64,000 nucleotides of DNA from an uncultured Verrucomicrobiae bacterium (GCA_963749035.1 CAVVKW010000004.1:1335550-1399549), one strand, 5' to 3'. Numbered from the stretch's first letter, positions 3,633-64,000 are shown. Notes: generated from the sequence alone by a model not told the origin. Translations and numbers: made by a program.

Positions 3633-6310
3633 TGTATCGAAGACCTCTCTTTTGCGCAGTATTTTACATGGCCCTTTCCCTATCTCCCGCTTTTTCAAAG
3701 ACCACACCCACGGTCACGCCCACCAATTCCCCGACCCTCCCGTCGAGCTCCGCACAGGTCTTCACGCTGGAGAATGGCCTCACCCTAATCGTCGACGAGG
3801 ACCGCAGCACTCCGGTCGCCAGCGTCCAGGGCTGGTGCGAGACCGGCAGCATCGATGAAGGCAAATGGACCGGTGCCGGCCTCTCCCACATCCTCGAGCA
3901 CATGCTCTTCAAGGGCACCGACAAACGAGGCAAGGGCGTCATCGACAGCACCGTCCAAAGCCTGGGTGGCTACATCAACGCCTCCACCTCCTTCGACCGC
4001 ACCATCTACTACATCGACATTCCTGCCGACGGAGTTGCCGAAGCCGTCGACATCGTTTGCGACGTCATGGTCAACGCCAACATTCCCGCCGACGAGTATG
4101 ACAAGGAGCAGGAAGTCATCCGCCGCGAATTCGCGATGGGTTTTGACAACCCCGACCGCGTGAGTTCGCGACTCCTCTTCAGCACCGTCTTCACCGAGAG
4201 CCCCTACCGCCACCCCGTCATCGGATACCTCGACGTTTACAACAAACTCACCCGCGAGGACGTCGTCGAATACTACAAGGCCCGCTACGTCCCGAATAAC
4301 ATGTTTCTCGTCGTGGTCGGCGACGTGGACGCCCTCGCGATCAAGGATCAGGTCGAAAAATTCTTTGCCGACCATCCGCGCGTCGCGCTCCCGCCGGTTT
4401 ACATTCCCACCGAGCCCCAGCAGACCGGTCGCCGAGAAGCCCACGAGGAATTTCCGACCGAACTCACCCGACTCAACCTCGCCTGGCGCACCCCGCCCGT
4501 CACGGCACCGGAGATGCCGGCACTCGACCTCCTCAGCACCGTCCTCGGTGGCGGCGTGAGTAGCCCGCTCTACCAGGACGTTCGGGAAGATCAGGGCCTC
4601 GTCTCCAGCATTGGTGCCGGATGTTACGCTTTGGCCAACGAAGGTCTTTTCGTCATCCGGGCCGTGACCGAACCCGGCAAACGCCAGGCCGCGACCGACG
4701 CCGCGCTCGCGAACGTCGAGCGCATCAAAGCCGAAGGCGTCAGCGAAGCCGACCTCACGAAAGCGCGGAATTCCCTGCTCTCCTCCCAGCTTGGCGCCCT
4801 CACCACCGTCAGCGGCATGGCCTCCGACCACGGCTCGAATTGGCTCCTCACCCGTAACCTGAATTTTTCCCGCGACTACCTCAACGCTCTGAACCGAACC
4901 ACCGTCGACGACCTCCAGCGCGTCGCTCAGCAGTATCTCACCGAGGACAACCTGACCGTCACTTCCCTGAATCCCGTCGGCTCCCTCGCCGCGCTCGAAG
5001 AGCAAGCCCCCGTCGCCGCCCGCGACGGTGAGATCAAGTCATTCACTCTTCCAAATGGCCTGGAGCTCATCGTTCGAGAAAACCATCGCCTCCCGCTCGT
5101 CTCCATGTCCGCCGTGTTCAAGGGCGGCGTCCTCGCCGAGACTCCGGCAAACAACGGCATCTCCGCCCTTCTTAGCCGCACCATCGTCAAGGGCACCGAT
5201 AGCCGCAGCGCGCGAGAGATCGCTTCCGCCATCGAATCCGTCGGCGGCACGATTGAAGGCAGCTCCGGCAATAACAGCGTGACGGTCTCCGTCGACGTCA
5301 TGAAACCCGACCTTTCGCTCGGATTGGAACTCCTCGCCGACGTGCTGAAGAACGCCACCTATCCCGACTCCGAAGTCGTTCGGGAAAAGGAAGCTCAGGT
5401 CGCGGAAATCAAGCGGGACGAGGATCAGATGACCGGCGTCGCCCGCAACGTCGTCCGCGAAAACCTTTTTCCCCATCACCCATACGGGCTCCGCAGCACC
5501 GGCACGACGGAGACGGTGAATGAACTCACCCCCAAACAGCTCCGGGATTTTCACCAGAAAATTATCAACGGCCAGAATGGCGTGCTAGCGGTCTTCGGCA
5601 ACGTCGACGCCGACGACGTTTACGAGCAGGTGAAGGCCATGCTCTCCGAGCTGCCACCCGGCCAGGACGTCTTCGCCGAGCTCCCCAATCCGCCGGCGCC
5701 GACCACCGACGAATCCTTCACCGAGATCCGCGAGAAAAACCAGGCTATCGTCATGATCGGTTACCCCGGCGTCGACATCTTCACCCCAGACCGCGCCGTC
5801 ATGGAGCTCATCGACACCGCCTCCAGTGATCTCGGCTCCCGGTTCTTCAACCGCATCCGCGAAGAGCTTGGCCTCGCCTACTTCGTTGGCACCACTCAGC
5901 TCATCGGACCCACCCCGGGCATGCTCGTCTTCTACCTCGGAACCGATCCGGCCAAGGTCGACGAAGTCCGCCGTGCGTTTAAGGACGAGATCGCCAATCT
6001 CGCCAAGCAGGGCCTCACGCCCGAAGAGCTCACCAAAGCCAAGAAAAAACTCCTCGGTGCCGAAGCGATCCGCGACCAGAGCGACGCCGCCATGGCGCAA
6101 GCCATCGCGCTCGACGTGCTCTTCGGCCTCGGGACCGATTTCCGCGACAAACGCCGCGCCGCCGTCGACGAAATCACCGTGGAGGATACCCAACGCGTTT
6201 CCAGTCAGTATTTCGGCAGCCCCGGCAGCGTGGAAGCCGTCGTCATGCCCCAACCCACACCGGAGTCGACCCCGACACCGTCCCCCATCCCCGCAGGCAC
6301 ACCTGAATAA
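3632..6310 (+). CDS. M16 (pitrilysin) family zinc peptidase, double-length (two M16 pairs)
   Basis: 892-aa ORF. Inverted zinc motif HILEHMLFKG with downstream EVIRREF. A second M16-like module starts near FTLPNGLELIVRENHRLP. Confidence 0.88.
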   Translation: MYRRPLFCAVFYMALSLSPAFSKTTPTVTPTNSPTLPSSSAQVFTLENGLTLIVDEDRSTPVASVQGWCETGSIDEGKWTGAGLSHILEHMLFKGTDKRGKGVIDSTVQSLGGYINASTSFDRTIYYIDIPADGVAEAVDIVCDVMVNANIPADEYDKEQEVIRREFAMGFDNPDRVSSRLLFSTVFTESPYRHPVIGYLDVYNKLTREDVVEYYKARYVPNNMFLVVVGDVDALAIKDQVEKFFADHPRVALPPVYIPTEPQQTGRREAHEEFPTELTRLNLAWRTPPVTAPEMPALDLLSTVLGGGVSSPLYQDVREDQGLVSSIGAGCYALANEGLFVIRAVTEPGKRQAATDAALANVERIKAEGVSEADLTKARNSLLSSQLGALTTVSGMASDHGSNWLLTRNLNFSRDYLNALNRTTVDDLQRVAQQYLTEDNLTVTSLNPVGSLAALEEQAPVAARDGEIKSFTLPNGLELIVRENHRLPLVSMSAVFKGGVLAETPANNGISALLSRTIVKGTDSRSAREIASAIESVGGTIEGSSGNNSVTVSVDVMKPDLSLGLELLADVLKNATYPDSEVVREKEAQVAEIKRDEDQMTGVARNVVRENLFPHHPYGLRSTGTTETVNELTPKQLRDFHQKIINGQNGVLAVFGNVDADDVYEQVKAMLSELPPGQDVFAELPNPPAPTTDESFTEIREKNQAIVMIGYPGVDIFTPDRAVMELIDTASSDLGSRFFNRIREELGLAYFVGTTQLIGPTPGMLVFYLGTDPAKVDEVRRAFKDEIANLAKQGLTPEELTKAKKKLLGAEAIRDQSDAAMAQAIALDVLFGLGTDFRDKRRAAVDEITVEDTQRVSSQYFGSPGSVEAVVMPQPTPESTPTPSPIPAGTPE

Positions 6311-17542: not shown

Positions 17543-18076
17543 TCAGCGCGCGGACGCCGCGTCCGCCTTCCGGCACGTTCCCTTCAACTTCAATTCGTCA
17601 CACGTTCCCTCGATCCGCACCATCTTGTTCGCCGGCGAGAATCCCAGTCGCCGCGTGATACAATTCTCCAACAACTCCATGTTCGTATCTTCGAATTCGA
17701 TGATCTTGTCACAGTCCACGCAGATCAGGTGATTGTGAGTCGGATGCTCCAGGAAATTCGGGTCGTAGAACTTCACGTCCCGACCCAGATCCAACTCCCG
17801 CAGCAGCCCGCTACTCACCAGCAGCGGGATCGTCCGATACACCGTCGCCCGCGAGACCGACTTGTCGATCGCTTTCGCCATCTCCAGCAGCTCCTCGGCG
17901 TGAAAGTGATCCTTCGTGCCCAGAACCGCCTCGATGATCGCTTCCCGCTGCGCCGTCCGCCTCAGCCCCTGCTCGGCAAGGTACGTATAGATGGTTTCGC
18001 GAACGGACGGTTCCACTCGGGCAACGGTAGGATGTCCCGAACGGGAGTCAAGAGCCGGTGCACCCCGGCAAGCCAA
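17543..18076 (-). CDS. Fur-family metalloregulator (Fur/Zur type)
   Basis: Winged-helix region RATVYRTIPLL; metal-site motifs HNHLICVDCDKIIEF and a C-terminal Cys. The true start is probably the internal GTG at 18016. Confidence 0.85.
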   Translation of the reverse strand: MACRGAPALDSRSGHPTVARVEPSVRETIYTYLAEQGLRRTAQREAIIEAVLGTKDHFHAEELLEMAKAIDKSVSRATVYRTIPLLVSSGLLRELDLGRDVKFYDPNFLEHPTHNHLICVDCDKIIEFEDTNMELLENCITRRLGFSPANKMVRIEGTCDELKLKGTCRKADAASAR

Positions 18077-18224
18077 CGCAGGAAAGGGGGAGAAGTGCCA
18101 GAGAACTACGGCAAAGAGGAGCGAGTTACCGTTGCTGCATTCCTGCCCTGGCGGGGTTCACCCGTCCGCAGTCCATAGCCCCTGGCAGCGGTGACAATAC
18201 GAATCCTCCGCCGCCGCGCAACCC

Positions 18225-21299: not shown

Positions 21300-23144
21300 A
21301 TGAAGTCCCTCACCTCCGTCCTCCTTGCCGCTGTCACCACGTTGGTGTTCGCGACGCCAACTCAACAAGCTCGGGCCGACGTCGACGTCTCGCTCGACTT
21401 CTTCTACGACGAACTCGATCCCGACGGAGATTGGTTCTACGTCGAAGACTACGGCTACTGCTGGCAACCCGCCGCAATCAGCGCGTCGTGGCGGCCCTAC
21501 AGCGATGGATCCTGGGTTTACACCGACGTCGGCTGGACCTGGAACTCCTACGAGGACTACGGCTGGGCGACCTACCACTACGGACGCTGGGCCAATCTCG
21601 GCGGACGTGGCTGGGTCTGGGTCCCCGGTTACGAGTGGGCACCCGCCTGGGTTTCCTGGCGCTCCGGTGGAGATTACGTCGGTTGGGCACCACTACCGCC
21701 CGAAGCCATCTACCGTCCTTCGGTCGGTATCAGCATCGGGTTCAGCTTCGGCATCGGACCCGCCAACTACAACTTCTGCCGCTACCGCGACTTCGGATAC
21801 TCGAACGTCGGCAACCACTTCGTACCCTACCGTGACAACGTCAACATCATCAACGAGACGACGAACATCACCAACATCACGAACGTCAACAACACCACCA
21901 TTTACAACGGCGGCCCGAACTACGACGAACTCCAGAGCCGCAGTCGCCAGTCGATTCCCCGGGCCAAACTCGAGCGCGTCAAACTCGCCGACAAACCGGG
22001 TCGAGGACTCGCCAAACCCAGCAACTCCCTCGCGGGAGATCGCCTCCGGGTCGTCTCGCCCAACGTGAAGCGTAACGAAAACGCCAAACCGAAACGGCTC
22101 GCCGAACGCGTCTCAAAAAAGAACGTCCAGGACGGCTGGTCCAACGTGAGTGACCAGAAAAAGGCCGCCCGCATCCGCGAACAGGTGCGCGAACAAGACC
22201 GCACCGTCGCCCAACGCCAGCGCGAACCGAAACCGGACAACTCCGCCGAGCGCACCGCCAACAACCCGCGCAAACCAGACGACCGGAAGGCCAACGCCCA
22301 AGCCGACAACCAGAACCGCGCTCAACGCAGCGACGGCCTGAAACCCTTCCTCTCCGATCGCGGCGCTCGGGATGACAACAACTCGCGCAACGCGGATTCC
22401 GATCCCGCCACCGACCGCCAGCGGGCCGAGCGGCAGAAAGCCGACGAGCGAGCTCAACGCCAACGCCAGGAAGACCGCGAGAAACAAGCCCGACAGGACG
22501 AAAAGGCTCGCGAACAGCGCCAAGCCGCCCGCCAGCAGGAGGAGCCCCGGAAGCCCACCCTCGACGAACGTAACCGGCAGCAACAGGCCTCCCGCCAACC
22601 GAAAGACCCACGCGCCCAGCAGCAGGAACAGCAGCGAGCCGAGCGTCAGCAAGACGCCCAGCGTGCCCAACGCCAGCAGGACGAACAGCGCGCCGAGCGC
22701 CAACGGGTCGAAGCGCGTGCCCAACAGCAGCACCAAGCCGAGCGCCAACAACAGGCCCGTCGCGAAGCATCCCAGCGTCCGCCAGCCCAGACCCAGCGCC
22801 CGCCCCAGTCGCAAAGCCGCCAGCCAGACGGCCGCGGGGTTCAGGCTCAACGCGAGATCGCTGAACGCCAGCAGGCCCAACGGCAAGCCCAGCAACGCCA
22901 GGCTCAACAGCGTCAACCGCAGCAACGCCAAGCGCAGGCCGCTCAAGCGGACGAGCGCGAGCAGAAGGAACGTCAGCAACGGCAACAACAGCGCCAGCAG
23001 CAACAATATCGGCCGCAACAGCAACAATACCGCCCGCAGCAGCAACGTCCGCAATCCAACCAGCAGCAGCGCCAGCAGCAGCCGAACCCCTACGGTCCCG
23101 GCGGACCCGGCAGGCCCTACGATCCCACGCAACCCCGCCGGTAA
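21300..23144 (+). CDS. Secreted protein: W/Y/G-repeat N-terminal domain (YXWGXW/DUF6600-like) plus about 370-aa Q/R/E/A-rich low-complexity tail
   Basis: 614 aa with signal peptide MKSLTSVLLAAVTTLVFA. Repeats GYCWQP, GSWVYTDVGWTW, YGWATYHYGRWA, GWVWVPGYEWAPAWVSW. The tail carries QRQAQQRQ and QQQYRPQQ reiterations. Confidence 0.7.
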   Translation: MKSLTSVLLAAVTTLVFATPTQQARADVDVSLDFFYDELDPDGDWFYVEDYGYCWQPAAISASWRPYSDGSWVYTDVGWTWNSYEDYGWATYHYGRWANLGGRGWVWVPGYEWAPAWVSWRSGGDYVGWAPLPPEAIYRPSVGISIGFSFGIGPANYNFCRYRDFGYSNVGNHFVPYRDNVNIINETTNITNITNVNNTTIYNGGPNYDELQSRSRQSIPRAKLERVKLADKPGRGLAKPSNSLAGDRLRVVSPNVKRNENAKPKRLAERVSKKNVQDGWSNVSDQKKAARIREQVREQDRTVAQRQREPKPDNSAERTANNPRKPDDRKANAQADNQNRAQRSDGLKPFLSDRGARDDNNSRNADSDPATDRQRAERQKADERAQRQRQEDREKQARQDEKAREQRQAARQQEEPRKPTLDERNRQQQASRQPKDPRAQQQEQQRAERQQDAQRAQRQQDEQRAERQRVEARAQQQHQAERQQQARREASQRPPAQTQRPPQSQSRQPDGRGVQAQREIAERQQAQRQAQQRQAQQRQPQQRQAQAAQADEREQKERQQRQQQRQQQQYRPQQQQYRPQQQRPQSNQQQRQQQPNPYGPGGPGRPYDPTQPRR

Positions 23145-23270: not shown

Positions 23271-23804
23271 GTGGAAAAGTCGCGAGCCATCCTGATCCGC
23301 CGATACCGCTTCTCCGAAACGAGCCTCATCTGCGTCTGGATCACCGACCGACACGGCAAGGTCAAGACGTCCGCCCGCGGAGCCCTTCAGCCCAAAAGCC
23401 CCTTCCGCGGCAAACTCGACCTCTTCTTCGACAACGACATCGCCTTCGATCCCCCCCGCACCGGCGACCTGAATTCCCTCCGCGAAGCCGTCATCCGTCA
23501 CCCCTTCGACGGCCTCGGCACGCAATACGCCAATCTAAGCACCGCCGCCTACTTCGGTGACCTCACCGATCTCGCGACCGAATCCGGCGCACCCGCCGAC
23601 GACATCTTCGATCTCCTCGAACGAGCCGTCACCTACCTCCGCCGCACCCCGTCAAACCTCCGAGCCATCGCCCACTTCGAGACCTCGCTCTGCCGAGTCA
23701 TCGGAATCTTTTCCGAATCCGGCGACCCGCTCCACACCCTCGCCTCCCACTGCGGCCGCATCCCAAAAACCCGCGCCGCCGCCCTCAAAGCTTTCGCAAC
23801 CTGA
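23271..23804 (+). CDS. recO: DNA repair protein RecO (short form)
   Basis: 177 aa. N-terminal OB-fold pattern AILIRRYRFSETSLICVW ... ARGA. Shorter than the E. coli RecO I recall, with no C-terminal extension. Confidence 0.7.
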   Translation: MEKSRAILIRRYRFSETSLICVWITDRHGKVKTSARGALQPKSPFRGKLDLFFDNDIAFDPPRTGDLNSLREAVIRHPFDGLGTQYANLSTAAYFGDLTDLATESGAPADDIFDLLERAVTYLRRTPSNLRAIAHFETSLCRVIGIFSESGDPLHTLASHCGRIPKTRAAALKAFAT

Positions 23805-23886: not shown

Positions 23887-25134
23887 CTACCGATCACACT
23901 CACCCATCACGAAGTCGACGCTCCCCAGGATGCTCACGCAATCGCTCACGAGATGACCCGGCAACAGCTTCGGAAGAATGCTCAGATTCACGAAGGAAGG
24001 GGCGCGGATCTTCAAGCGATACGGCACCCCGCCGCCCTTGCTGCAGATGTAAAATCCCAGCTCGCCCTTCGGATTTTCCGCGCCGAAGTAAACTTCGCCC
24101 CGAGGCGCGTCGATGCCCTCCGTCGTGACAATGAAATGGTGGATCAGCTCCTCCATCTTTGTCATCACGTCCACCTTCGACGGCAGCGAGCTCTTCGGAT
24201 CGAAGTAATTGATCGGCCCCGTCGGCAAATCATCGAGCGCCTGACGCAGGATTCGGCAACTCTGCCGCATCTCCTCCATCCGCACCAGATACCGATCGTA
24301 GCAATCACCCACTTCCCCGATCGGAATCTCAAAATCGTATTTCTCGTAATCCAGATAAGGGTTTGCCCGCCGCACGTCGTGTTCGATTCCGCTTCCGCGT
24401 AAATTCGGCCCCGAGATGGCGTAGCCGATCGCGTCCTCCTTCGAGATCACGCCCACGTCCTTCGTCCGATCCACGAAGATCCGGTTGCGACTCAGCAAAC
24501 TGTCCAACTCATCCCAGACCGGTAGGAACGAATCGATGAACTCCCGCACCTGCGCTGGAAACGTGTCCGGCAAATCGCGCGTCTGACCACCCACGCGAGT
24601 GTAGCTCGTCGTAAAGCGCGCCCCCGTCAGTTGCTCGATCAAGTTATAAATCTTCTCCCGCTCCGTGAACGTGAACAAAAAGACCGACGTCGCGCCCAGA
24701 TCCAATCCGTAAGCCCCGATCCCCAGCAAATGCGCCGAGATCCGCGCCAGCTCACACGCGATCACGCGAATCGACTTCCCCCGCGGCGGCAGCTCCCACC
24801 CCATCAATTTCTCGACCGCCATCGCGTAAGCAACGTTGTTCGCCAGCGGTGCCAGGTAATCCAACCGATCCGTGTAGGGGACGAACTGATTGTATTGCAT
24901 GTTCTCCGCGATCTTCTCGTCGCCCCGATGCAAGTAACCGCAATCCGGCGTCGCCTTCGTGATGATCTCGCCGTCCATTTCCAGAATCAACCGCAACACA
25001 CCGTGCGTCGACGGATGCGACGGACCCATGTTCAGCGTGAGAGTCTCGCCCAGCAGCTCACCAGCCTCCTGCGAAGACTCGAGGTTTTGCAGGCTGCGGG
25101 TCAGCGTATCGGGTTGCTCGTAGGTCGTGGGCAT
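23887..25134 (-). CDS. nuoD: NADH-quinone oxidoreductase subunit D (49-kDa subunit)
   Basis: 415 aa from ATG 25134 (MPTTYEQ). Motifs NMGPSHPSTHGVLRL and C-terminal VMGECDR typical of NuoD. No other nuo genes are adjacent. Confidence 0.9.
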   Translation of the reverse strand: MPTTYEQPDTLTRSLQNLESSQEAGELLGETLTLNMGPSHPSTHGVLRLILEMDGEIITKATPDCGYLHRGDEKIAENMQYNQFVPYTDRLDYLAPLANNVAYAMAVEKLMGWELPPRGKSIRVIACELARISAHLLGIGAYGLDLGATSVFLFTFTEREKIYNLIEQLTGARFTTSYTRVGGQTRDLPDTFPAQVREFIDSFLPVWDELDSLLSRNRIFVDRTKDVGVISKEDAIGYAISGPNLRGSGIEHDVRRANPYLDYEKYDFEIPIGEVGDCYDRYLVRMEEMRQSCRILRQALDDLPTGPINYFDPKSSLPSKVDVMTKMEELIHHFIVTTEGIDAPRGEVYFGAENPKGELGFYICSKGGGVPYRLKIRAPSFVNLSILPKLLPGHLVSDCVSILGSVDFVMGECDR

Positions 25135-25204
25135 GTCGGATTTTCGTTTGGCGCTCAGACAGTTTTTACGTCCGAAACAGGAATCGAGGTTGCCATTGTC
25201 AGAC

Positions 25205-25224
25205 TTTGTGAAAAATTTCACAAA
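25205..25224. promoter_or_regulatory. CRP/FNR-family-type operator palindrome (TGTGA-N6-TCACA)
   Basis: TTTGTGAAAAATTTCACAAA: 9-bp perfect arms and AT-rich within GC-rich DNA. It sits in the 98-bp nuoD/ndh divergent spacer and ends 8 nt before the ndh ATG. Confidence 0.5.
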
Positions 25225-25232
25225 CTCCTGCC

Positions 25233-26528
25233 ATGACTGCTGCCACTTTGTCGCCCGACTCGAAAAAATCAAGCCTCCCCGTGGTTGCCATCATTGGCTG
25301 CGGATTCGGAGGCCTCTCGGCGGCCCGTGCGCTCAAGAACGCGCCCGTCACCGTGGTCCTCATCGATCGCACCAATCACCACCTCTTCCAGCCGCTCCTC
25401 TACCAGGTGGCCACCGCCGGCCTTTCGCCCGCCGACATCGCCAAGCCGGTCCGATCCATTCTCCGCGGCCAGCGGAACGTCACCTGCGTCATGGCCGAGA
25501 TTACCGGCATCGACGTCGACAGTCGCGAACTCACCAGCCCGCAGGGCAATCTGACTTACGACTACCTCATCGTGGCCACCGGCGCTCGCCATTCCTATTT
25601 CGGCAATCCCGAGTGGGAAAAGATCGCTCCCGGCCTGAAGAGTCTCGGCGACGCCACCGAGATTCGCCGCCGCATCCTGACTGCGTTCGAGGAAGCGGAA
25701 AAAATCGAGGACGAAGCTCGTCGCAAAGCTCGCATGACCTTTGTCGTCGTCGGCGGCGGCCCGACCGGCGTCGAAATGGCCGGAGCCATCAGCGAGCTCG
25801 CGCGTCACACGCTCAGCGACGACTTCCGCCACATCGACCCGAAGCACACTCGCGTCGTCCTCGTCGAAGCCACCGACCGCATCCTCGCGACCTACACCGA
25901 GGACCTCTCGGCCAGCGCCGTCGAACAGCTCGAATCCCTCGACGTCGAAGTTCGCCTTTCCGATCCAGTAGAGAATCTCGAACCCGGCACCGTGACGTTG
26001 AAGAGCGGACCGATCCCGTGCGACACCGTCATCTGGGCCGCCGGCACCGAGGCCTCCGGACTGGCCAGGAAAATCCCCGTCGAAACCGACAAACCTGGCC
26101 GCGCCAAGGTCAACCAAGACCTCACCATCCCGGACCATCCGGAGATTCAGGCCGTGGGCGACATCATCACCGTCAAAGACAAGGAAGGCAAACCCGTCCC
26201 CGGAGTCGCGCCAGCCGCCATGCAGGCAGGCAAACACGCTGCCGAAAACATCCTCCGTCAACTTGACGAAAAACCGCCGACCGACTTCTGGTATTTCGAC
26301 AAAGGCAACCTCGCCACCATCGGTCGGCACCGCGGCATCGGCGACCTCGGGTTTGCCAAGGTCACCGGGACCATCGCCTGGCTTGCCTGGGCCTTCATTC
26401 ACCTCTTCTTCCTCATCGGCTTCCGGAATCGCATCCTGGTGTTTTTCCAATGGGCTTACGCCTACGTCACCTACGCCCGCGGCGCCCGCCTCATCGGCCC
26501 AAAAGCACCGGGCGACCGGGAAGAGTAA
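25233..26528 (+). CDS. ndh: Type II NADH dehydrogenase (NDH-2)
   Basis: 431 aa. Two dinucleotide folds, IIGCGFGG and VVGGGPTGVE; C-terminal membrane-anchoring hydrophobic segment. Confidence 0.9.
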   Translation: MTAATLSPDSKKSSLPVVAIIGCGFGGLSAARALKNAPVTVVLIDRTNHHLFQPLLYQVATAGLSPADIAKPVRSILRGQRNVTCVMAEITGIDVDSRELTSPQGNLTYDYLIVATGARHSYFGNPEWEKIAPGLKSLGDATEIRRRILTAFEEAEKIEDEARRKARMTFVVVGGGPTGVEMAGAISELARHTLSDDFRHIDPKHTRVVLVEATDRILATYTEDLSASAVEQLESLDVEVRLSDPVENLEPGTVTLKSGPIPCDTVIWAAGTEASGLARKIPVETDKPGRAKVNQDLTIPDHPEIQAVGDIITVKDKEGKPVPGVAPAAMQAGKHAAENILRQLDEKPPTDFWYFDKGNLATIGRHRGIGDLGFAKVTGTIAWLAWAFIHLFFLIGFRNRILVFFQWAYAYVTYARGARLIGPKAPGDREE

Positions 26529-29478: not shown

Positions 29479-30459
29479 TCACAGCAGATCCGCCACCATC
29501 TCGCGCTCCTGCCGAAGCTCCTCGACGGTCGCGTCGACCTTGGTCTGGCTGAATTCCGACAGCTTCACGTCTTGCACGATCTCGACCTTGTTGCCGTCCG
29601 ACCGCACCGGGAAGGAGCACATCAATCCCTCTTCGATCCCGTAGCTTCCGTCGGAACACACCGCGACGCTGTGCCAGTCGTCGCCCTTCGTCGGAGTCAC
29701 GATCGACTGGATGGTCTCGATCGCCGCGTGCGCCGCCGAAGCCGCCGACGACAACCCGCGTGCCGCGATGATCGCCGCACCCCGCTGCTGCACCGTCTTG
29801 ATGAACTCGCCCTCCAAATATGCGGTATCCGTGATCACTTCTCCGACCGGTTTTCCGTCGATGCGCGCATTCCCGAAGTCCGGGTAGAGCGTCGCAGAAT
29901 GATTACCCCAGATCGCCAGCCGATCCACGTCGCTCCAATGCTTCCCAGCCTTCAGTGCCAACTGCGTCTTCGCCCGATTTTCGTCGAGCCGCGTCATCGC
30001 GAACCAACGATCCGCCGGCAGGTCTTTCCCGTTGTTCATCGCGATCAGGCAGTTCGTGTTGCAGGGATTTCCCACCACCAGCACGCGAGCATCCGCCGCC
30101 GCGTTCTTGGCAATCGCCTCGCCCTGACCCACGAAAATCTTCCCGTTGATCCCCAGCAGATCTTTGCGCTCCATCCCCGCCTTGCGCGGCACGCTGCCGA
30201 CCAGCATCGCCCAGTTCACACCGTCAAACCCCGCGTCGAGATCCGAAGTCCCGTCCACGTCCGCCAAGAGCGGAAACGCGCAATCGTGCAGTTCCATGAT
30301 CACGCCCTCGAGCGCCTTCATTCCCGGCTCGATCTCGATCAAACTCAGTGAAACCGGTTGGTCAGGACCAAAAACACCGCCGGACGCGATCCGGGGAAGA
30401 AGTGAATAACCGATCTGGCCCGCCGCACCGGTGACCGCAACTTTAATGGGAGCTTTCAT
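29479..30459 (-). CDS. mdh: Malate dehydrogenase
   Basis: 326 aa. NAD fold [10 protein letters not shown], substrate Arg context, IWGNHS motif of the LDH-like/cytosolic-type MDH. Confidence 0.95.
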
Positions 30460-30616
30460 ACCGACCTAGATTGCCTGAATCGCCCCAATTCACGAAAGCA
30501 CAATTCCGCAACGATCCCGTCACCACCGATCTTTCCCACATTTTTCAAGACCACCCCGCCCTTTCCTGATTCAGTTCGCGAAAGTCCCGGGACGAACAAA
30601 CCCAACGAATCACCCC

Positions 30617-31832: not shown

Positions 31833-33437
31833 ATGGCCTCGTCCCCCTCCCCGCCGTGTGATTCCATCCCGCGGACCGTGAAACCGTATTTCATCACCAC
31901 CGCGATCGACTACACCAACGGCGCCCCGCACACCGGGCACGCCTACGAAAAGGTCCTCGCCGATGCCCTCGCCCGCTTCCAACGCCAGTCTGGACGCGAC
32001 GTGTTCTTCCTGACCGGCGTCGACCAGCACGGCCAAAAAGTCCAGCAATCTGCCGAAAAACTCGGCATCCAACCCGCCGAATTTGTCGAAAATCTCACCG
32101 CCCAGTTCCGCTCCCTCTGGAGCGATCTCGCCATCAGCAACAATGCCTGGGCCGCCACCACCGACCCGCTCCACGTCCGCTGCGTGCAAGGCATCCTTCA
32201 GCAACTTTTCGACGCTGGCCAGATCTACCGCAGCACCCAGACCGGCCACTACAGCGTCCGCCAGGAACAATTCGTCACCGACAAGGAACGCGGACCCGAC
32301 GGCGAATTCGGCCCCGAGTGGGGCGAAGTCACGCTCATCGAGGAAGAGAACTACTACTTCCGCCTCGAGAAACACCGCGACTGGCTCCTCGACTACGTCG
32401 ACACCCACCCCAACTTCATCACTCCCGAATTCCGTCGGACCGAACTCCGCAACGCCGTCGAAAAGCTCACCGGCGACCTCTGCATCTCCCGCCCCAAGTC
32501 CCGCCTCCAGTGGGGCATCGAGCTCCCCTTCGACCCCGACTTCGTCACCTACGTCTGGTTCGACGCCCTCATCAACTACATCTCCTTCGCCGGCTACGAA
32601 CCCTCATCCCCACTCAACACTCAACTCTCAACACTCAACTTCACCTGGCCCGCGCTCCACGTCATCGGCAAGGACATTCTCATCCCCGCCCACGGCGTTT
32701 ACTGGCCCATCATGCTTCACGCCATCGGCTTCCCCGACGACGCCATCCCACCGCTCCTCGTTCACGGCTGGTGGAACATCTCCGGCGCGAAGATGAGCAA
32801 AAGCCTCGGCAACGTCGTCGCCCCCACCGAACTCATCGAACGCTACGGCGCCGATGCCGTCCGCTATTATCTGCTCGCCGACATCGTCACCGGACGCGAC
32901 GCCGACTTCAACCCGACCCGCCTCGAAGAGCGCTACAACTCCGATCTCGCCAACGGCATCGGCAACCTCCTCAACCGCACGCTGAACATGGCGAAAAAGT
33001 ATCGCGAAGGAGTCCTCCGATCCGACACCACCGACGGACTCCGCCCCGCCGCCGAGTCCGCCGTCGCGGCCTACACCGCCGCCTTCGAGCGGTCCGATCC
33101 TCGCGCCGCCATCGACGCCATCGTCGACCTCGCCAACGCCGCCAACCAACACGTCGACCAGTCCGCCCCGTGGAAACTTGCCAAGTCTGAGAGTGACGCC
33201 GCCGCTCTCGACACCGTCCTCTACCACCTCGCCGAAACGACCCGCATCCTCGCCATCCTCCTCAACCCCATCGTCCCGACCGCAGCGGAGAAGATCGCCA
33301 CCCAACTCGCCATCGACCCCGCCACCCTCACGATGGCCAACGCGACCTGGGGCGGCCTCCCCGACGGCCACACCCTCTCCGCCCCATCGCCGGTCTTCCC
33401 CCGAATCGACACGACGAAGTCGAGTGTTGAAAGTTGA
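31833..33437 (+). CDS. metG: Methionine--tRNA ligase
   Basis: 534 aa from ATG 31833. HIGH-type HTGHAYE and KMSKSLGN. The track ORF from 31734 overlaps the preceding permease. Confidence 0.95.
   Translation: MASSPSPPCDSIPRTVKPYFITTAIDYTNGAPHTGHAYEKVLADALARFQRQSGRDVFFLTGVDQHGQKVQQSAEKLGIQPAEFVENLTAQFRSLWSDLAISNNAWAATTDPLHVRCVQGILQQLFDAGQIYRSTQTGHYSVRQEQFVTDKERGPDGEFGPEWGEVTLIEEENYYFRLEKHRDWLLDYVDTHPNFITPEFRRTELRNAVEKLTGDLCISRPKSRLQWGIELPFDPDFVTYVWFDALINYISFAGYEPSSPLNTQLSTLNFTWPALHVIGKDILIPAHGVYWPIMLHAIGFPDDAIPPLLVHGWWNISGAKMSKSLGNVVAPTELIERYGADAVRYYLLADIVTGRDADFNPTRLEERYNSDLANGIGNLLNRTLNMAKKYREGVLRSDTTDGLRPAAESAVAAYTAAFERSDPRAAIDAIVDLANAANQHVDQSAPWKLAKSESDAAALDTVLYHLAETTRILAILLNPIVPTAAEKIATQLAIDPATLTMANATWGGLPDGHTLSAPSPVFPRIDTTKSSVES
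32611..32638. repeat. Heptamer tandem repeat CACTCAA x4 inside the metG coding sequence
   Basis: CACTCAA CACTCAA CTCTCAA CACTCAA, read directly. Translates in frame as part of PLNTQLSTLN. Confidence 0.85.
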
Positions 33438-33495
33438 GTGTTGAGTGGAGAGCCCTCTGCATCTCAGGCCACTCAACACTCAACACTCAACACTC
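33422..33495. repeat. Long hairpin built from inverted heptamer arrays (TTGAGTG)n / (CACTCAA)n spanning the metG stop
   Basis: Arms 33422-33448 and 33469-33495 pair at 25 of 27 positions around a 20-nt loop. The metG stop TGA (33435-33437) lies inside the 5-prime arm. No U-tract follows. Confidence 0.8.
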
Positions 33496-33512
33496 ATCAC
33501 ACCCCCGCCACA

Positions 33513-34650: not shown

Positions 34651-35577
34651 TTAGTCTGTTTTGGTTGTTAGGTTATTGAGTGAGTTTTCGTATTCGAGGG
34701 GTGATTGGTAGTCGAGGGAGCTATGGAGTCGGCGTGGATTGTAGAAGGTGTCGATGTAGTCGAAGAGCATCGCGTCGGCTTGGGCTCGGGTGGCCGGAGG
34801 GCCGGCGTGGAAGCATTCGGTTTTGAGAGTGGACCAGAACGACTCCATGGCGGCGTTATCATAGCAGTTGGCGCGTCGGCTCATGCTCGGCGTCACGCCG
34901 TGGGAGTCGAGCAGGGAGCGGAAAGCCCCAGCGGCGTACTGGCTGCCGCGGTCGGAATGGTGGAGTTGTGGACGAGTTCCTGAGAGCAAGACGGCGCGGC
35001 TGAAGGCGCTTTCGACGAGGGTGCTCTCCATGGTTGATCCCGTTTTCCAGCCAACGATCCGACGGGAAGCGAGGTTCATTTCGGCAGCCAGATAATGCCA
35101 GCCTTCATCGGTGGGTAGGTAGGTGATGTCAGCCACCTATGTCTGCCCAGGGGTAGACGAGGTCGTGTTGGTCGTATCGGACAAGAGCCGATTCGGGGCG
35201 ATGGGATGAGGGTGGCGGCTGTCGGTCGTGCGGGGCCGATAACGACCCTTGCGCAAGGCACATAGTCCTTTCTGGGACATCAAGCGCGAGATACGTCGTC
35301 GCCCGCAGACTTGCCCTTCTCGATCAAGGACGACGCGCAGCCGACGGGTCCCGTAGGTTCGGCGGTTCTCGTGGAAAGCCGCTTCGATCCGATCACTCAG
35401 ATCGGCGTCTTCGCGCTGGCGCAGACCTTCGGTCTTTTTCCCGTGGGCGTAGTAGCCGCTGCGACTGACTTCCAGAGCCAGGCAAAGCTCCTTGAGGGTA
35501 AAGGTGTTCTTTTCCATCGTCTCGATCAGCGCGAAGCGTTCCACGGTTCCTGACCCAAAATGGCGCAGGCTTTTTTT
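34651..35577 (-). pseudogene. IS3-family transposase OrfB (DDE/rve integrase core) interrupted by an in-frame TAG
   Basis: The two track ORFs (35137-35745 and 34651-35136) are in the same frame and contiguous. Sequence reads ...CAG ACA TAG GTG GCT GAC ATC ACC = PGQT*VADITY, where family members carry W (PNQxWxxDITY). DDE residues are otherwise intact (ADITY, HSDRGSQY, NAAMESFW). Confidence 0.8.
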
Positions 35578-35876
35578 AAAATGTCTCGTTGGCGGGTGGT
35601 GAACTCCAGTTCCCTTCTCAGGCGAGCGTTCTCGCTGGCGAGGTCCTGGGGCCGCCCCGCCGCCGGGACGGGTCCTCCTCCCCCCTCCGGACCCGTCCCG
35701 GCGGCGGTTCTCCCGTAAAGCTTCTTCCACCTGCCCAGGCTCCACGTCGAGATCCCCAGCTCAAGCGCCAGTTGTGTCGCGCTTCGCGTTCCGCTTTCCA
35801 GCATTTCCACGGCGCTTCGTTTGAACTCTTCGTCAAATCGTCGCCCCTTGTTCGTTTCTCTTGGTTTTTCGTTCAC
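35526..35876 (-). CDS. IS3-family transposase OrfA (HTH)
   Basis: 116 aa, GTG start. FKRSAVEMLESGTRSATQLALELGIS helix-turn-helix and a leucine-zipper-like C-terminus. Confidence 0.85.
   Translation of the reverse strand: MNEKPRETNKGRRFDEEFKRSAVEMLESGTRSATQLALELGISTWSLGRWKKLYGRTAAGTGPEGGGGPVPAAGRPQDLASENARLRRELEFTTRQRDILKKACAILGQEPWNASR
35571..35577 (-). promoter_or_regulatory. Programmed -1 frameshift slippery site (A AAA AAA) of the IS3 element
   Basis: Minus strand reads GAC ATT TTA AAA AAA GCC in the orfA frame. A -1 shift gives KKSLRHFGSGTVERF, continuous with the orfB frame. Confidence 0.7.
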
Positions 35877-42453: not shown

Positions 42454-42488
42454 AATCCGAAATCCAAAATCCGAAATCCAAAATTCCC
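42454..42488. repeat. Heptamer tandem repeat AATCCRA x5 filling the spacer before trpA
   Basis: AATCCGA AATCCAA AATCCGA AATCCAA AATTCCC, directly followed by the trpA GTG at 42489. Confidence 0.85.
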
Positions 42489-48725: not shown

Positions 48726-48778
48726 AAATCCGAAATCCAAAATCCCGAATCCGAAATCCTCAATCCGAAATCCAAAAC
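48726..48778. repeat. Heptamer tandem repeat AAATCCN x7-8 between nadD stop and rsfS
   Basis: AAATCCG AAATCCA AAATCCC GAATCCG AAATCCT CAATCCG AAATCCA AAAC. It runs straight into the nadD stop codon complement at 48779-48781. Confidence 0.85.
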
Positions 48779-49362: not shown

Positions 49363-49397
49363 CAATCCAAAATCCAAAATCCAAAATCCAAAATCAA
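49363..49397. repeat. Heptamer tandem repeat AAATCCA x5 filling the nadD/nagZ divergent spacer
   Basis: CAATCCA AAATCCA AAATCCA AAATCCA AAATCAA, directly followed by the nagZ ATG at 49398. The whole spacer is only 55 bp. Confidence 0.85.
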
Positions 49398-60717: not shown

Positions 60718-61169
60718 CACGCGATAGGTTCTAGCCACCCGCCGCGTTCCGACAACCGAAAAAGCGGGAAGAGATCCACGGATGGAATCGAAGCACCGCA
60801 AATTCTCGCCGCGAGCAAATCAGATAATGATTCCCCGCCTCCTTCCCCTTCGCCTTCGACTCAGTCCCAACGGCCACCACTCGAAAGCAATCCATCCGAG
60901 ATCCACGACCAGATTCGACTTCGAAGCCACCACCAGTCCCGAGAAAAAAACCTGACCAACGGCGTTTTCATTTTCGGCTCGGCCAAACTCACCGACCAGA
61001 CCCTCTCGGCACGGAAATCGCTGTATTCGGACGTCATAACGAACGTCCACTAGACATCCGACCAAGTCATCAAATACCGAATTCCCCCCCCGGCACCGGC
61101 CGCCATCACGCTCCGGTCGCATTCCAGATTGGATCTTCGATCCATTCCCGTCGCATTCTTGCCTGAACC

Positions 61170-64000
61170 GTGAAATCCCGCCCCTGGTTGATCGCCGCAA
61201 CGATCCTGTTACTCCTCGCCGCCGCCTCGATCGCGCCGTCACTCATGTCACCGCGGACCACCACCGCCGCGCCCCGTCAATCTGATCCGTCAACCTCCTC
61301 CCGGCCCAGCCCCGCAGCGACGACCTCACCAACTCCATCTGCCACGGCATCTCACCCGACTCCGTCCGCTTCACCCTCTCCCCCGCTACAATTTCCCCTC
61401 ACGCTCGAAGACGCCGGCACCACCCGCCCCTTCGAACCCGCCCTCGACGAGATCGTCCGCCGCCACCCCGACGGCACCGAGCAAACGATCCCCCTCCCGA
61501 CCCAACCCGATTTCGCCAGCCTCCGCGCCACCGCTGCCGCCCTCCCCGCCGCCAGCTCAGGCACCCTCCTTCCGGTCTTCTACGAGCCAGACGCCCACCG
61601 GAACTCCACCACCCGCCGCCTCGCCACCCCCGAGATCCGCGTCGAACTCACCCCCGGCTCCGCCCTCCCCACGTCCATTCCCGACAACGTCGAAGTCACC
61701 CGGCCCGACTACGCCCCCGACTTTGCCGTCCTTCGGTTCCCCGACGCCTTCACCGCTCTCGACCGCCTCGCTCTCGTCCGCTCCCTCCCCGGAGTCCGCC
61801 GCGCCGACGTTCTCCTCGCCCGCCAACAAACCCGCCGCGCCCTTCCTAACGACCCCCTCGTCACCAGCCAGTGGCACCTGAAAAATACCGGCCAAAGTAG
61901 CGGCACCGTCGGCTCCGACATCAACGTCGAATCCGTTTGGAACTACCCCGCCAGCGGCATCCGCGGCGCCGGTCTCATCGTTGGCGTCGTCGACGATGGA
62001 CTGGAAACCTCCCACCCCGACCTCGCCACCAACGTTCGCACCGATATCGACCACGATTGGAATGACTCCACCCCCAACGATCCCTCACCCGGACCTGACG
62101 ACGACCACGGCACCGCCTGCGCCGGCAACGTCGCCGCCATCGGCAACAACAATCTCGGCGTCGTCGGCAGTGCTCCCGAGGCCAAGATCGTCGGCCTTCG
62201 ACTCATCGCCGCCTCCACCACCGACTCTCAGGAAGCCGAAGCCATGGCTTGGCGCAACGACCTCATCCACGTCAAATCGAACAGCTGGGGTCCCTCAGAC
62301 GACGGCCGCACGCTCGAAGCCCCCGGCAGCCTCACCAAAGCCGCCTTCGCCAACGCCGTCACCACCGGTCGCTCGAATCGCGGCACCATCATTCTCTGGG
62401 CCGGTGGCAACGGACGCAGCTCATCCGACAACTCCAACAACGACGGTTACGCCAACTCCATCCACACCATCGCGGTCGGCGCCAGCACGAACCGAGACGC
62501 TCAAGCCCCCTACGGCGAACCCGGCGCCAATCTCGTCGTCGTCGCCCCGTCCAGCGGAGGCACCCTCGACATCACCACCGTCGATCGCTCCGGCTCCGCC
62601 GGCTACAACTCCGCCTCCGGCTCCGCCGGAAATTACGCGACCGACTTCGGCGGCACCTCGTCCTCCACCCCCACCGTCGCGGGCGTCGTCGCCCTCATGC
62701 TTCAACGCAATCCCACCCTCGGCTGGCGCGACGTTCAGGAGATCCTCATCAAGTCCGCCGCCAAGATCAGCCCCGCCGACTCCGATTGGACCACCAACTC
62801 CGGCGGCTACCGCTTCAACCACAAGTTCGGCGCCGGACTCGTCGACGCCGCCGCGGCCGTCACCGCCGCCGCCACGTGGACCAACCTCGGCACCCCCACC
62901 ACCGCCCTCTCGACTCAATCGAACTCCACCACCATCCCCGACAACAACGCCACCGGCATCACCCGCACCTTCGACCTCGGGTCCAGCAACCTCCGGGTCG
63001 AACACGTCACCCTCCGCCTCGACGTCAATCACACCTCCCGCGGTAATCTCACCGTTACCCTCACGTCCCCCAGCGGCACCCAAAGCCGCCTCACCGAACT
63101 CCACTCCGACTCCGGCAACAACTATTCCGACTGGACCTTCATGACCGTCCGGAACTGGAGCGAAAATTCCAGCGGCACCTGGACACTCAAGATCGCCGAC
63201 CGCAGCACCGCCGGCAATTCCACCGGCGGCACCCTCACCGCCGCCGAACTCACCGTTTTCGGCGTCACCGCCGAACCGGTCAACCCCGCCCCCGTCGTCC
63301 AACTCACGACTCCCGACGACCAGTCGATCTTCAGCCCCGGCGCTCCCATCGACCTTGCCGCCACCGCGACCGACCTCACCATCGACGGTCAACCCGGCGT
63401 CGTCACCGGCGTCGAATTCCTCGTCAACGGCATCCCGGTCGGGTCCGACACCACCAGCCCCTACTCCATCACCTACACCCCGCCCACCACCGGCACCTAC
63501 ACCGCCCAAGCCCGCGCCACCGACAGCGAAGGAGCCGTCGGCAATTCCGGCACGCGCACCTTCACCGTCGCCAACCAGCCCCCCGTCATCGCCTCGGCCT
63601 CCCTCTCATCCACCGATCAGGGATTCAGCGACGAGCCCCTCAGCGTCACCGACCTCACCGCCTCCGACCCCGAAAGCTCCCCCGTCGCCATCGCCTACCA
63701 ATGGCAATCCTCCACCGACGGAATCAACTTCACCGACGCCATCAGCCGCAACACCGCAACGATCACGGCAACCCCCGGCCACGTCTGGCGCTGCGTCCTC
63801 ACGCCTTCCGACGGCGAAATCGTGGGCGAGCCGTTCACCACCGCCGCCACGATGATCCTCACCCGCCCACCATCCACCGTCGTCGCGGGCTCCGACTACG
63901 CCCACACCAGCGATCTCGTTCTCCGGAGCACCTCCGCCTCGTTCGCTTGCTCCGCCATCATTAACGAGTTCAGCCAGGGACCCAGCGGCGGCACCGCGGA
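61170..64000 (+). CDS. Secreted subtilisin/kexin-like S8 serine protease with proprotein-convertase P domain and Ig-like repeats (3-prime partial)
   Basis: Not in the ORF track because no stop occurs before the window end; translated by hand in the frame of GTG 61170, which follows an in-frame TGA. Signal-anchor (V)KSRPWLIAATILLLLAAASIA. Catalytic D (GVVDDG), H (DDHGTACAGN), S (GGTSSSTPTVAG). P-domain block NLTVTLTSPSGT ... SGTWTLKIAD, then Ig-like VEFLVNGIPVGSDTTSPYSITYTP. Confidence 0.85.
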   Translation, partial: MKSRPWLIAATILLLLAAASIAPSLMSPRTTTAAPRQSDPSTSSRPSPAATTSPTPSATASHPTPSASPSPPLQFPLTLEDAGTTRPFEPALDEIVRRHPDGTEQTIPLPTQPDFASLRATAAALPAASSGTLLPVFYEPDAHRNSTTRRLATPEIRVELTPGSALPTSIPDNVEVTRPDYAPDFAVLRFPDAFTALDRLALVRSLPGVRRADVLLARQQTRRALPNDPLVTSQWHLKNTGQSSGTVGSDINVESVWNYPASGIRGAGLIVGVVDDGLETSHPDLATNVRTDIDHDWNDSTPNDPSPGPDDDHGTACAGNVAAIGNNNLGVVGSAPEAKIVGLRLIAASTTDSQEAEAMAWRNDLIHVKSNSWGPSDDGRTLEAPGSLTKAAFANAVTTGRSNRGTIILWAGGNGRSSSDNSNNDGYANSIHTIAVGASTNRDAQAPYGEPGANLVVVAPSSGGTLDITTVDRSGSAGYNSASGSAGNYATDFGGTSSSTPTVAGVVALMLQRNPTLGWRDVQEILIKSAAKISPADSDWTTNSGGYRFNHKFGAGLVDAAAAVTAAATWTNLGTPTTALSTQSNSTTIPDNNATGITRTFDLGSSNLRVEHVTLRLDVNHTSRGNLTVTLTSPSGTQSRLTELHSDSGNNYSDWTFMTVRNWSENSSGTWTLKIADRSTAGNSTGGTLTAAELTVFGVTAEPVNPAPVVQLTTPDDQSIFSPGAPIDLAATATDLTIDGQPGVVTGVEFLVNGIPVGSDTTSPYSITYTPPTTGTYTAQARATDSEGAVGNSGTRTFTVANQPPVIASASLSSTDQGFSDEPLSVTDLTASDPESSPVAIAYQWQSSTDGINFTDAISRNTATITATPGHVWRCVLTPSDGEIVGEPFTTAATMILTRPPSTVVAGSDYAHTSDLVLRSTSASFACSAIINEFSQGPSGGTA

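Follow-up and report, generated by a model that had tools for sequence, protein, structure and literature searches.

Between nuoD and ndh, two divergent genes for different NADH dehydrogenases in a 64,000-nucleotide stretch of DNA (the whole stretch that was analyzed, referred to in the following as the window), lies a short spacer that contains a perfect palindrome. The locus raises the question of which regulator would bind this palindrome, and what it would do to the two genes. The first-pass annotation had proposed a regulator of the CRP/FNR family, repressing one gene and activating the other. The genes and the spacer are as follows:

23271–23804: recO, convergent with nuoD
23887..25134, minus strand: nuoD, complex I 49-kDa subunit, 415 aa (Pfam Complex1_49kDa, 9.8e-113, 376 bits)
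25135..25232, no strand assigned: divergent nuoD/ndh spacer, 98 bp, holding both promoters
25233..26528, plus strand: ndh, encoding NDH-2, 431 aa (Pfam Pyr_redox_2, 5.7e-46, and NDH2_C), without a Shine–Dalgarno sequence

The palindrome, TTTGTGAAAAATTTCACAAA, is located at 25205–25224, with 9-bp perfect arms around a 2-nt center, and includes TGTGA-AAAATT-TCACA at 25207–25222. Its end is separated from the ndh ATG (25233) by 8 nt, CTCCTGCC, and its center (25214.5) is 80.5 nt from the nuoD ATG (25134, minus strand). These measurements bear out the initial description of a palindrome with 9-bp arms and an exact TGTGA-N6-TCACA, ending 8 nt before ndh and centered about 80 nt from the nuoD start. 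It had also been noted that no other part of the 98-bp spacer is strongly AT-rich, and this holds: the A+T content is 16/20 in the palindrome and at most 12/20 in the 20-nt segments of the spacer that are clear of it. The exact TGTGA-N6-TCACA motif occurred once in the 64-kb window versus 0.03 expected, and the 20-mer with up to three mismatches occurred once versus 0.04 expected. No further copies of the palindrome were found in the window when three mismatches were allowed, and because there is only this single site, a regulon could not be defined from the window alone.

GTDB genomes were searched with the Ndh protein of the window, and 80 ndh loci were taken. The search placed the window in Verrucomicrobiota, with the best matches to "uncultured Verrucomicrobiae" MAGs (77–79% identity), followed by Terrimicrobiaceae and "Spartobacteria" MAGs (64–66%); these loci are L001–L004. 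The divergent nuoD/ndh order and the palindrome were kept in all four, and no longer stretch of the spacer is unchanged among these loci, whose Ndh proteins are 64–79% identical to that of the window. Outside the palindrome, the spacer shared by the window, L001 and L002 differs from that of the L003/L004 subclade. A more distant Chthoniobacterales MAG (L015, Ndh 56%) has two operators, one by ndh and one by nuoDEF, and the same site is found upstream of ndh in four Gemmatimonadaceae genomes. Both 7-nt half-sites are invariant in L001–L004, in L015 and at the four Gemmatimonadaceae sites, and the motif is thus kept at orthologous loci. The ATG at 25233 is supported as the ndh start by an in-frame GTG (codon 17) that reads GTT in L004; this GTG was considered as the true start and rejected for that reason. 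In L004 itself, the sole possible ndh start lies 5 nt after the operator.

The pattern used in this comparison was TTGTGA-N6-TCACAA, with the inner A and T left free. It matched 10 sites in 9 of the 80 ndh loci, and the inner A and T were present in all 10, giving TTGTGAA-N4-TTCACAA without the pattern requiring it. The N4 varies (AAAT, ATTT, ATGC, GAGT, ATAT, ACTC, ACTT and ACAT). Since the inner A and T are constant while the central four bases are variable, the conserved unit is TTGTGAA-N4-TTCACAA. The distribution of mismatches upstream of ndh in the 80 loci was bimodal, with 0 in nine loci, 1–3 in none and at least 4 in the rest; among 924 background segments, the best match never had fewer than three mismatches.

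This pattern of conservation bears on the possibility that the palindrome is an RNA hairpin in the ndh leader, affecting translation or stability, or has no function. It could form an 8-bp stem with a 4-nt loop within a structure of moderate stability (−9.9 kcal/mol, z-score −1.97), and it is placed directly before a start codon that has no Shine–Dalgarno sequence. However, across 11 sites the stem never changes, not even by compensatory substitutions, while the loop varies; an invariant stem with a variable loop suggests sequence-specific recognition, rather than a structural constraint. The distance between the palindrome and neighboring genes also varies, as does the side on which it lies; Rfam gave no match, and most of the palindrome would not be transcribed if the ndh promoter predicted below is right. 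A functionless palindrome is further opposed by the chance expectation of 0.03–0.04 per window. We consider both of these explanations extremely unlikely.

The sequence TTGTGAA-N4-TTCACAA is the published operator of the redox-sensing repressor Rex, and the site in the window matches it at 14 of 14 specified positions. The operator has been given as TTGTGAANNNNTTCACAA (18 bp) in Streptomyces (PMC5355995) and as TTGTGAAW4TTCACAA in S. aureus (PMC2883068); the N4 of the window, AAAT, fits the A/T-only center of the latter. According to the literature, a Rex dimer binds TTGTGAA-N4-TTCACAA at low NADH/NAD+ and is released when NADH binds to its Rossmann domain. The palindrome is quite probably an operator for Rex, working as in the mechanism proposed below. 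The operator is described as follows:

25205..25224, no strand assigned: Rex-type operator (ROP); consensus match, unique in the window, invariant in L001–L004 and L015
25206–25223, within 25205..25224: 18-bp operator core, TTGTGAAAAATTTCACAA, with 9-bp perfect arms

Metagenome contigs were scanned for YTTGTGAANNNNTTCACAAR, yielding at least 120 loci. Of these, 75 were on contigs with at least 55% G+C, which weigh more because an A+T-rich 16-mer is least likely to occur there by chance. The genes flanking the sites were called, clustered and annotated, giving 114 site-flanking proteins. A rex gene, encoding the domain pair Put_DNA-bind_N (PF06971) and CoA_binding (PF02629), was present in at least 11 loci among the matches listed (seven identified via clustering, eleven after tblastn), and directly adjoins the site in at least eight of those eleven. 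Other neighbors among the matches listed were subunits of complex I (NuoB, 7; NuoF, 4; NuoC, NuoD and NuoG), NDH-2 (3), ATP synthase subunit a (3), multihaem and mono-haem cytochromes c (9), cupredoxins, Fe–S proteins, FAD-dependent oxidoreductases (11) and, by rex, arginine deiminase (5). The neighbors of the motif in the metagenomes are those of a Rex-type regulon.

Several of the metagenome loci could be connected to Verrucomicrobiota. The NuoF cluster of L119 and L173 has an NCBI member labelled Verrucomicrobiaceae, and the Ndh cluster of L153 has NCBI members labelled Akkermansiaceae and Luteolibacter. Among the operators by nuoDEF, that of L188 is located 91 nt upstream of the genes, and the separate one of L015 is 64 nt from the nuoD ATG.

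Two further observations concern the range of possible Rex targets. In five contigs (L087, L094, L140, L183 and L189), rex adjoins an arginine deiminase gene, and a single perfect operator lies between the two or close by; in the contigs for which both starts were called (L087, L094 and L189), the two genes diverge. The rex genes of these five contigs are 57–69% identical to rex with Gemmatimonadota as named relatives. The pairing suggests redox control of arginine catabolism. Lactate/malate dehydrogenase is a classic Rex target in Firmicutes, and the window contains such a gene at 29479–30465 (minus strand), where no Rex-type operator was found even at three mismatches, a point against the assignment to Rex.

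The proposal of a CRP/FNR-family regulator was based on the TGTGA-N6-TCACA core. In E. coli, ndh is repressed by FNR, and TGTGA-N6-TCACA is the CRP site. A CRP/FNR protein, or another non-Rex regulator sharing the palindrome, might act here in response to cAMP, oxygen or another signal. The exact core is indeed present, but it is also contained in the Rex consensus, and does not discriminate between the two. The bases that do discriminate are those around it: the presumed N6 begins with A and ends with T at every site, without exception, and on the outside the half-sites are flanked by TT/AA, unlike the AAA/TTT flanks of the E. coli CRP consensus. The conserved unit is thus a pair of 7-nt half-sites with a free N4, which is the Rex operator, and in metagenomes the motif adjoins rex. 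In Gemmatimonadota, rex is probably autoregulated through the identical motif, and the ndh orthologues of this phylum share the site. On the other hand, Actinobacterial CRP-family regulators (GlxR, mycobacterial Crp) control respiratory genes, positively or negatively, from TGTGA-N6-TCACA, which counts in favor of a CRP-type protein, as does the fact that many loci have the operator shortly before the −35 (described below), a position that would suit an activator.

A gene for a CRP/FNR-family protein was looked for in the window and in the other loci searched, and none came to light. Pfam searches of about 70 window ORFs and eight CRP-sized ORFs of related loci gave no cNMP_binding or HTH_Crp domains, and the CRP/FNR family was not among the 25 commonest Pfam families (at least three members) of the 114 site-flanking proteins. 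A phmmer search of all locus ORFs with E. coli CRP and FNR, which is a low-sensitivity search, gave no match. The FNR consensus TTGAT-N4-ATCAA is absent from the nuoD/ndh spacer. The regulators found in the window were an OmpR-type response regulator, a Fur-family protein and an ECF sigma factor. Taken with the form of the half-sites, these results make control of the site by a CRP/FNR-type or other non-Rex regulator quite improbable.

The main weak point of the assignment to Rex, which also speaks for a different regulator, is the lack of a rex gene among the Verrucomicrobial sequences examined. Searches by tblastn found no rex in the 64 kb of the window or among the 80 GTDB loci (9-kb loci of relatives), nor was a Rex protein found in any Verrucomicrobial sequence examined. 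Perfect operators had identified three rex lineages, and homologue searches from all three gave named relatives that were all Gemmatimonadota. A profile search against 1.84 billion representatives retrieved 1,902 representatives of the Rex family (50% identity, E ≤ 1e-30), for which the cluster look-up returned almost no organism names, and the literature searched gave no report linking Rex to Verrucomicrobiota. Rex is nevertheless the economical assignment, since Gemmatimonadota have rex and the identical operator lies on the orthologous ndh gene in both phyla; Rex is thus predicted to be encoded by the genome from which the window is derived.

We then infer the following promoter for ndh from the position of the operator and from the related loci:

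25190..25195, plus strand: TTGCCA, predicted ndh −35, 9 nt upstream of the operator, with TTGNNN at 9–10 nt in relatives
25209..25217, plus strand: TGaAAAATT, predicted extended −10 in the A+T-rich center of the operator, its TG being that of TGTGA, 16 nt from the −35

Seven of the sites examined have a TTGNNN hexamer 9–10 nt upstream of the operator: TTGCCA in the window, L001 and L002, TTGATC in L003, TTGACC in L004, TTGCGC at site b of L015 and TTGCAC in a Gemmatimonadaceae locus (L030). There was no general TTG enrichment upstream of all listed metagenome sites, and a generic scan of the spacer for sigma-70 promoters and terminators gave no match. The arrangement predicts that ndh transcription starts in the right arm, at about 25223–25225, with a leader of about 8–10 nt. 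The operator is 4–16 nt from the ndh start in the orthologues, which have no Shine–Dalgarno sequence, except for L015 (16 nt, AAGGAG). The short leader fits both this distance and the missing Shine–Dalgarno, and short or absent leaders would also fit the leaderless nuoF promoters predicted in related Verrucomicrobiota (see below). A leaderless ndh whose −10 would be provided by the right arm was also considered, and was rejected because the distance from the palindrome to the start varies from 4 to 16 nt.

The position of the operator argues for repression of ndh. A Rex dimer bound there would cover the predicted −10 and the start of ndh, and since the operator overlies these elements, bound Rex should block RNA polymerase and NADH should relieve the block. 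At low NADH/NAD+, ndh would be repressed, and as NADH accumulated, Rex would be released and ndh derepressed. NDH-2 oxidizes NADH, so that the result would be a homeostatic loop, like that of Rex and Ndh in B. subtilis, as far as the latter is described in the papers that cite the original work. Placement over promoter elements is also described for Rex in S. avermitilis, where its footprints cover core promoter elements and extend about 5 nt past the operator, with the atpI footprint spanning −50 to −22 (PMC5355995). The direct targets repressed by Rex in that species are nuoA-N, ndh2, the atp operon, cydABCD and rex itself (PMC5355995), and the yjlC-ndh operon of B. subtilis is likewise repressed by Rex (Gyan et al. 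2006, as cited in PMC5355995 and PMC2883068).

The same operator probably also controls nuoD, since there are separate operators for nuoDEF in L015 and L188 and for nuoF in L084. The nuoD gene of the window is 92–94% identical to those of L001 and L002, and 72% identical to that in the nuoDEF operon of L015. In the window, as in L001 and L002, it is monocistronic; L003, L004, L015 and L188 have nuoDEF instead. A Pfam scan of ORFs found no other nuo genes in the 64-kb window. In L084, which has the same GC skew signature as the window, nuoF stands alone, with a Rex-type operator directly in front of it. It seems that complex I has been scattered, each piece retaining its own operator. Since one kind of operator serves genes of both NDH-1 and NDH-2, co-derepression by NADH is the more likely outcome: with nuoD sharing the site, both NADH dehydrogenase routes would rise together when NADH builds up, rather than being exchanged.

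The skew shared with L084 extends over the whole window, where GC skew averages −0.25 and is negative in 32 of 32 two-kb bins (−0.05 to −0.41), with genes on both strands. This far exceeds the usual replication skew. The closest relatives, L001 (−0.20) and L002 (−0.23), share the skew, as do the metagenome loci L084 (−0.34) and L142 (−0.44); L201 is listed with them, and L003 and L004 do not have it. The window has several other features of its own. Tandem heptamers are found at 32611–32639, 33470–33500, 42454–42484, 48726–48777 and 49364–49395, with units CACTCAA (four copies, at two places) and AATCCAA or AAATCCG (four to seven copies); the nuoD/ndh spacer of L015 has four copies of GGAACCC (about 3930–3965). 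An IS3-like element at 34651–35745 (minus strand) consists of an HTH_21 ORF (35137–35745) followed by an rve integrase-core ORF (34651–35136), probably a frameshifted orfAB transposase. A bacterial small SRP RNA (18093–18187, minus strand; Rfam RF00169, 55.8 bits) adjoins a Fur-family gene (17543–18076), and there are no tRNA genes in the 64-kb window. A DUF6600 protein of 614 aa (21300–23144, plus strand) has a C-terminal half encoded by imperfect 15–27-nt repeats and rich in Q, R and A, and these repeats account for an AT skew of 0.42 in the 22–24 kb bin. The right end of the window cuts through an ORF of more than 943 aa (61167–64000, plus strand), whose N-terminus resembles a signal peptide and which has a low-complexity region rich in T, S and P; when ORFs reaching the end are left out of the ORF lists, what remains there is spurious frames only.

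The promoter on the nuoD side is less distinct than that of ndh. One candidate element was noted:

25197..25202, minus strand: CTGACA, weak −35-like hexamer on the nuoD strand, 2 nt after the operator; speculative

Relatives have TTGCGA (L001), TTGAGG (L003) and TTGCGG (L004) at this position. No convincing −10 was found after this TTG-like hexamer, which lies 1–3 nt past the operator on the nuoD strand. The arrangement resembles a layout shared by 16 loci (L084, L119, L173, L146, L165, L106, L133, L089, L111, L182, L169, L129, L167, L153, L188 and L015), in which the operator is followed after 4–7 nt by TTGNNN (often CTTGCCG) and, 16–17 nt further on, by a −10-like hexamer. In the nuoF promoters of this layout, GATAAT is separated by 5 nt from the ATG, which predicts a leaderless nuoF mRNA. 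The center of the operator falls near −50, and those members of the layout that carry a taxonomic label are all Verrucomicrobial.

A slot near −50 is commoner for activators than for repressors, and a Rex-type site might then act in two ways, repressing ndh and activating nuoD together with further genes for complex I, ATP synthase and cupredoxins. The first-pass annotation had contained the same idea in the form of a switch that represses NDH-2 and activates nuoD. In addition to the stereotyped layout in 16 loci, including nuoD of L015 and L188, such a dual role is favored by the ndh and nuoDEF sites of L015, which differ in geometry, one of each kind, and by the nuoD strand in the lineage of the window, which has a TTG-like hexamer without a good −10, a weak −10 being typical of activator-dependent promoters. 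However, geometry fails to separate NDH-2 from NDH-1, since ndh of L153 itself has the operator upstream of the −35, and activation of NADH-oxidizing complex I at low NADH would make little physiological sense. Rex is described as a repressor (PMC5355995, PMC2883068), and with footprints that reach −50 (PMC5355995), occlusion of the −35 and UP-element from a site near −50 is plausible. The layout is thus compatible with repression, as footprints exceed the operator and the A+T-rich operator fills the UP-element zone. Of the proposed switch, repression of ndh agrees with the position of the site, but activation of nuoD does not agree with what is described for Rex, and we regard the dual role as unlikely.

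In its most general form, this alternative holds that Verrucomicrobiota use two operator geometries, either over the −10 and start (ndh of the window and L015) or 4–7 nt upstream of the −35 of genes predicted to be leaderless or to have short leaders (nuoD, nuoF, nuoB, atp and cupredoxin genes), by which one NADH/NAD+ sensor, Rex or another regulator using the Rex motif, represses NDH-2 and activates the scattered complex I. This, too, is unlikely, and we favor Rex as a repressor of ndh and, with less certainty, of nuoD.

Rex is among the best-understood links between redox state and transcription, and has been studied mainly in Gram-positive bacteria. The mechanism proposed here is an ordinary and known one, and what is new is its setting in a little-studied phylum, Verrucomicrobiota. 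The results indicate that, in abundant soil members of Verrucomicrobiota and Gemmatimonadota, a perfect Rex-type operator accompanies the genes for NDH-2, the scattered complex I, ATP synthase and electron carriers and places them under its control, which offers a simple, testable handle on how respiration is tuned in these mostly uncultured bacteria. They also correct a mis-annotation: a TGTGA-N6-TCACA that reads TTGTGAA-N4-TTCACAA should be called Rex, not CRP. What the locus adds to the known mechanism is the scattering of nuo genes, each with its own operator, and the stereotyped promoter geometry.

Among known systems, the CRP/FNR sites of E. coli share with this one the TGTGA/TCACA core and a position upstream of ndh under global respiratory control, but the site described here has 7-nt half-sites and other flanks, and the regulator gene adjoining the motif, where there is one, is rex. 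The Rex (YdiH)–Ndh loop of B. subtilis, to the extent that it is described in papers citing it, is similar to what is proposed here in that an NADH-responsive operator lies on an NDH-2 gene whose product feeds back on the repressor. The B. subtilis consensus given there is looser, WWTGTGAANTNNTNNNCAAW, and the target is an operon in a Firmicute, whereas here the palindrome is perfect and lies in a divergent spacer with nuoD, in a lineage where no rex has been seen so far.

In S. aureus, the Rex regulon consists mainly of fermentation and nitrate respiration genes, while the regulon inferred here is that of the aerobic respiratory chain (PMC2883068). Streptomyces (S. coelicolor and S. avermitilis) has the same consensus and the same target classes as the regulon inferred here, namely complex I, NDH-2, ATP synthase and rex (PMC5355995). 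The targets there are nuoA-N, ndh2, atpIBEFHAGDC, cydABCD and rex-hemACD, with the operator overlapping the core promoter (PMC5355995), as is predicted here for ndh. The difference lies in gene organization and promoter architecture. Streptomyces has one operator for a 14-gene nuo operon, between or over the −35 and −10 (PMC5355995), whereas here the nuo genes are scattered (nuoD in the window, nuoF in L084, nuoDEF in relatives), with one operator per unit, and in related Verrucomicrobial loci the operator is placed just upstream of the −35 of promoters predicted to be leaderless or to have short leaders.
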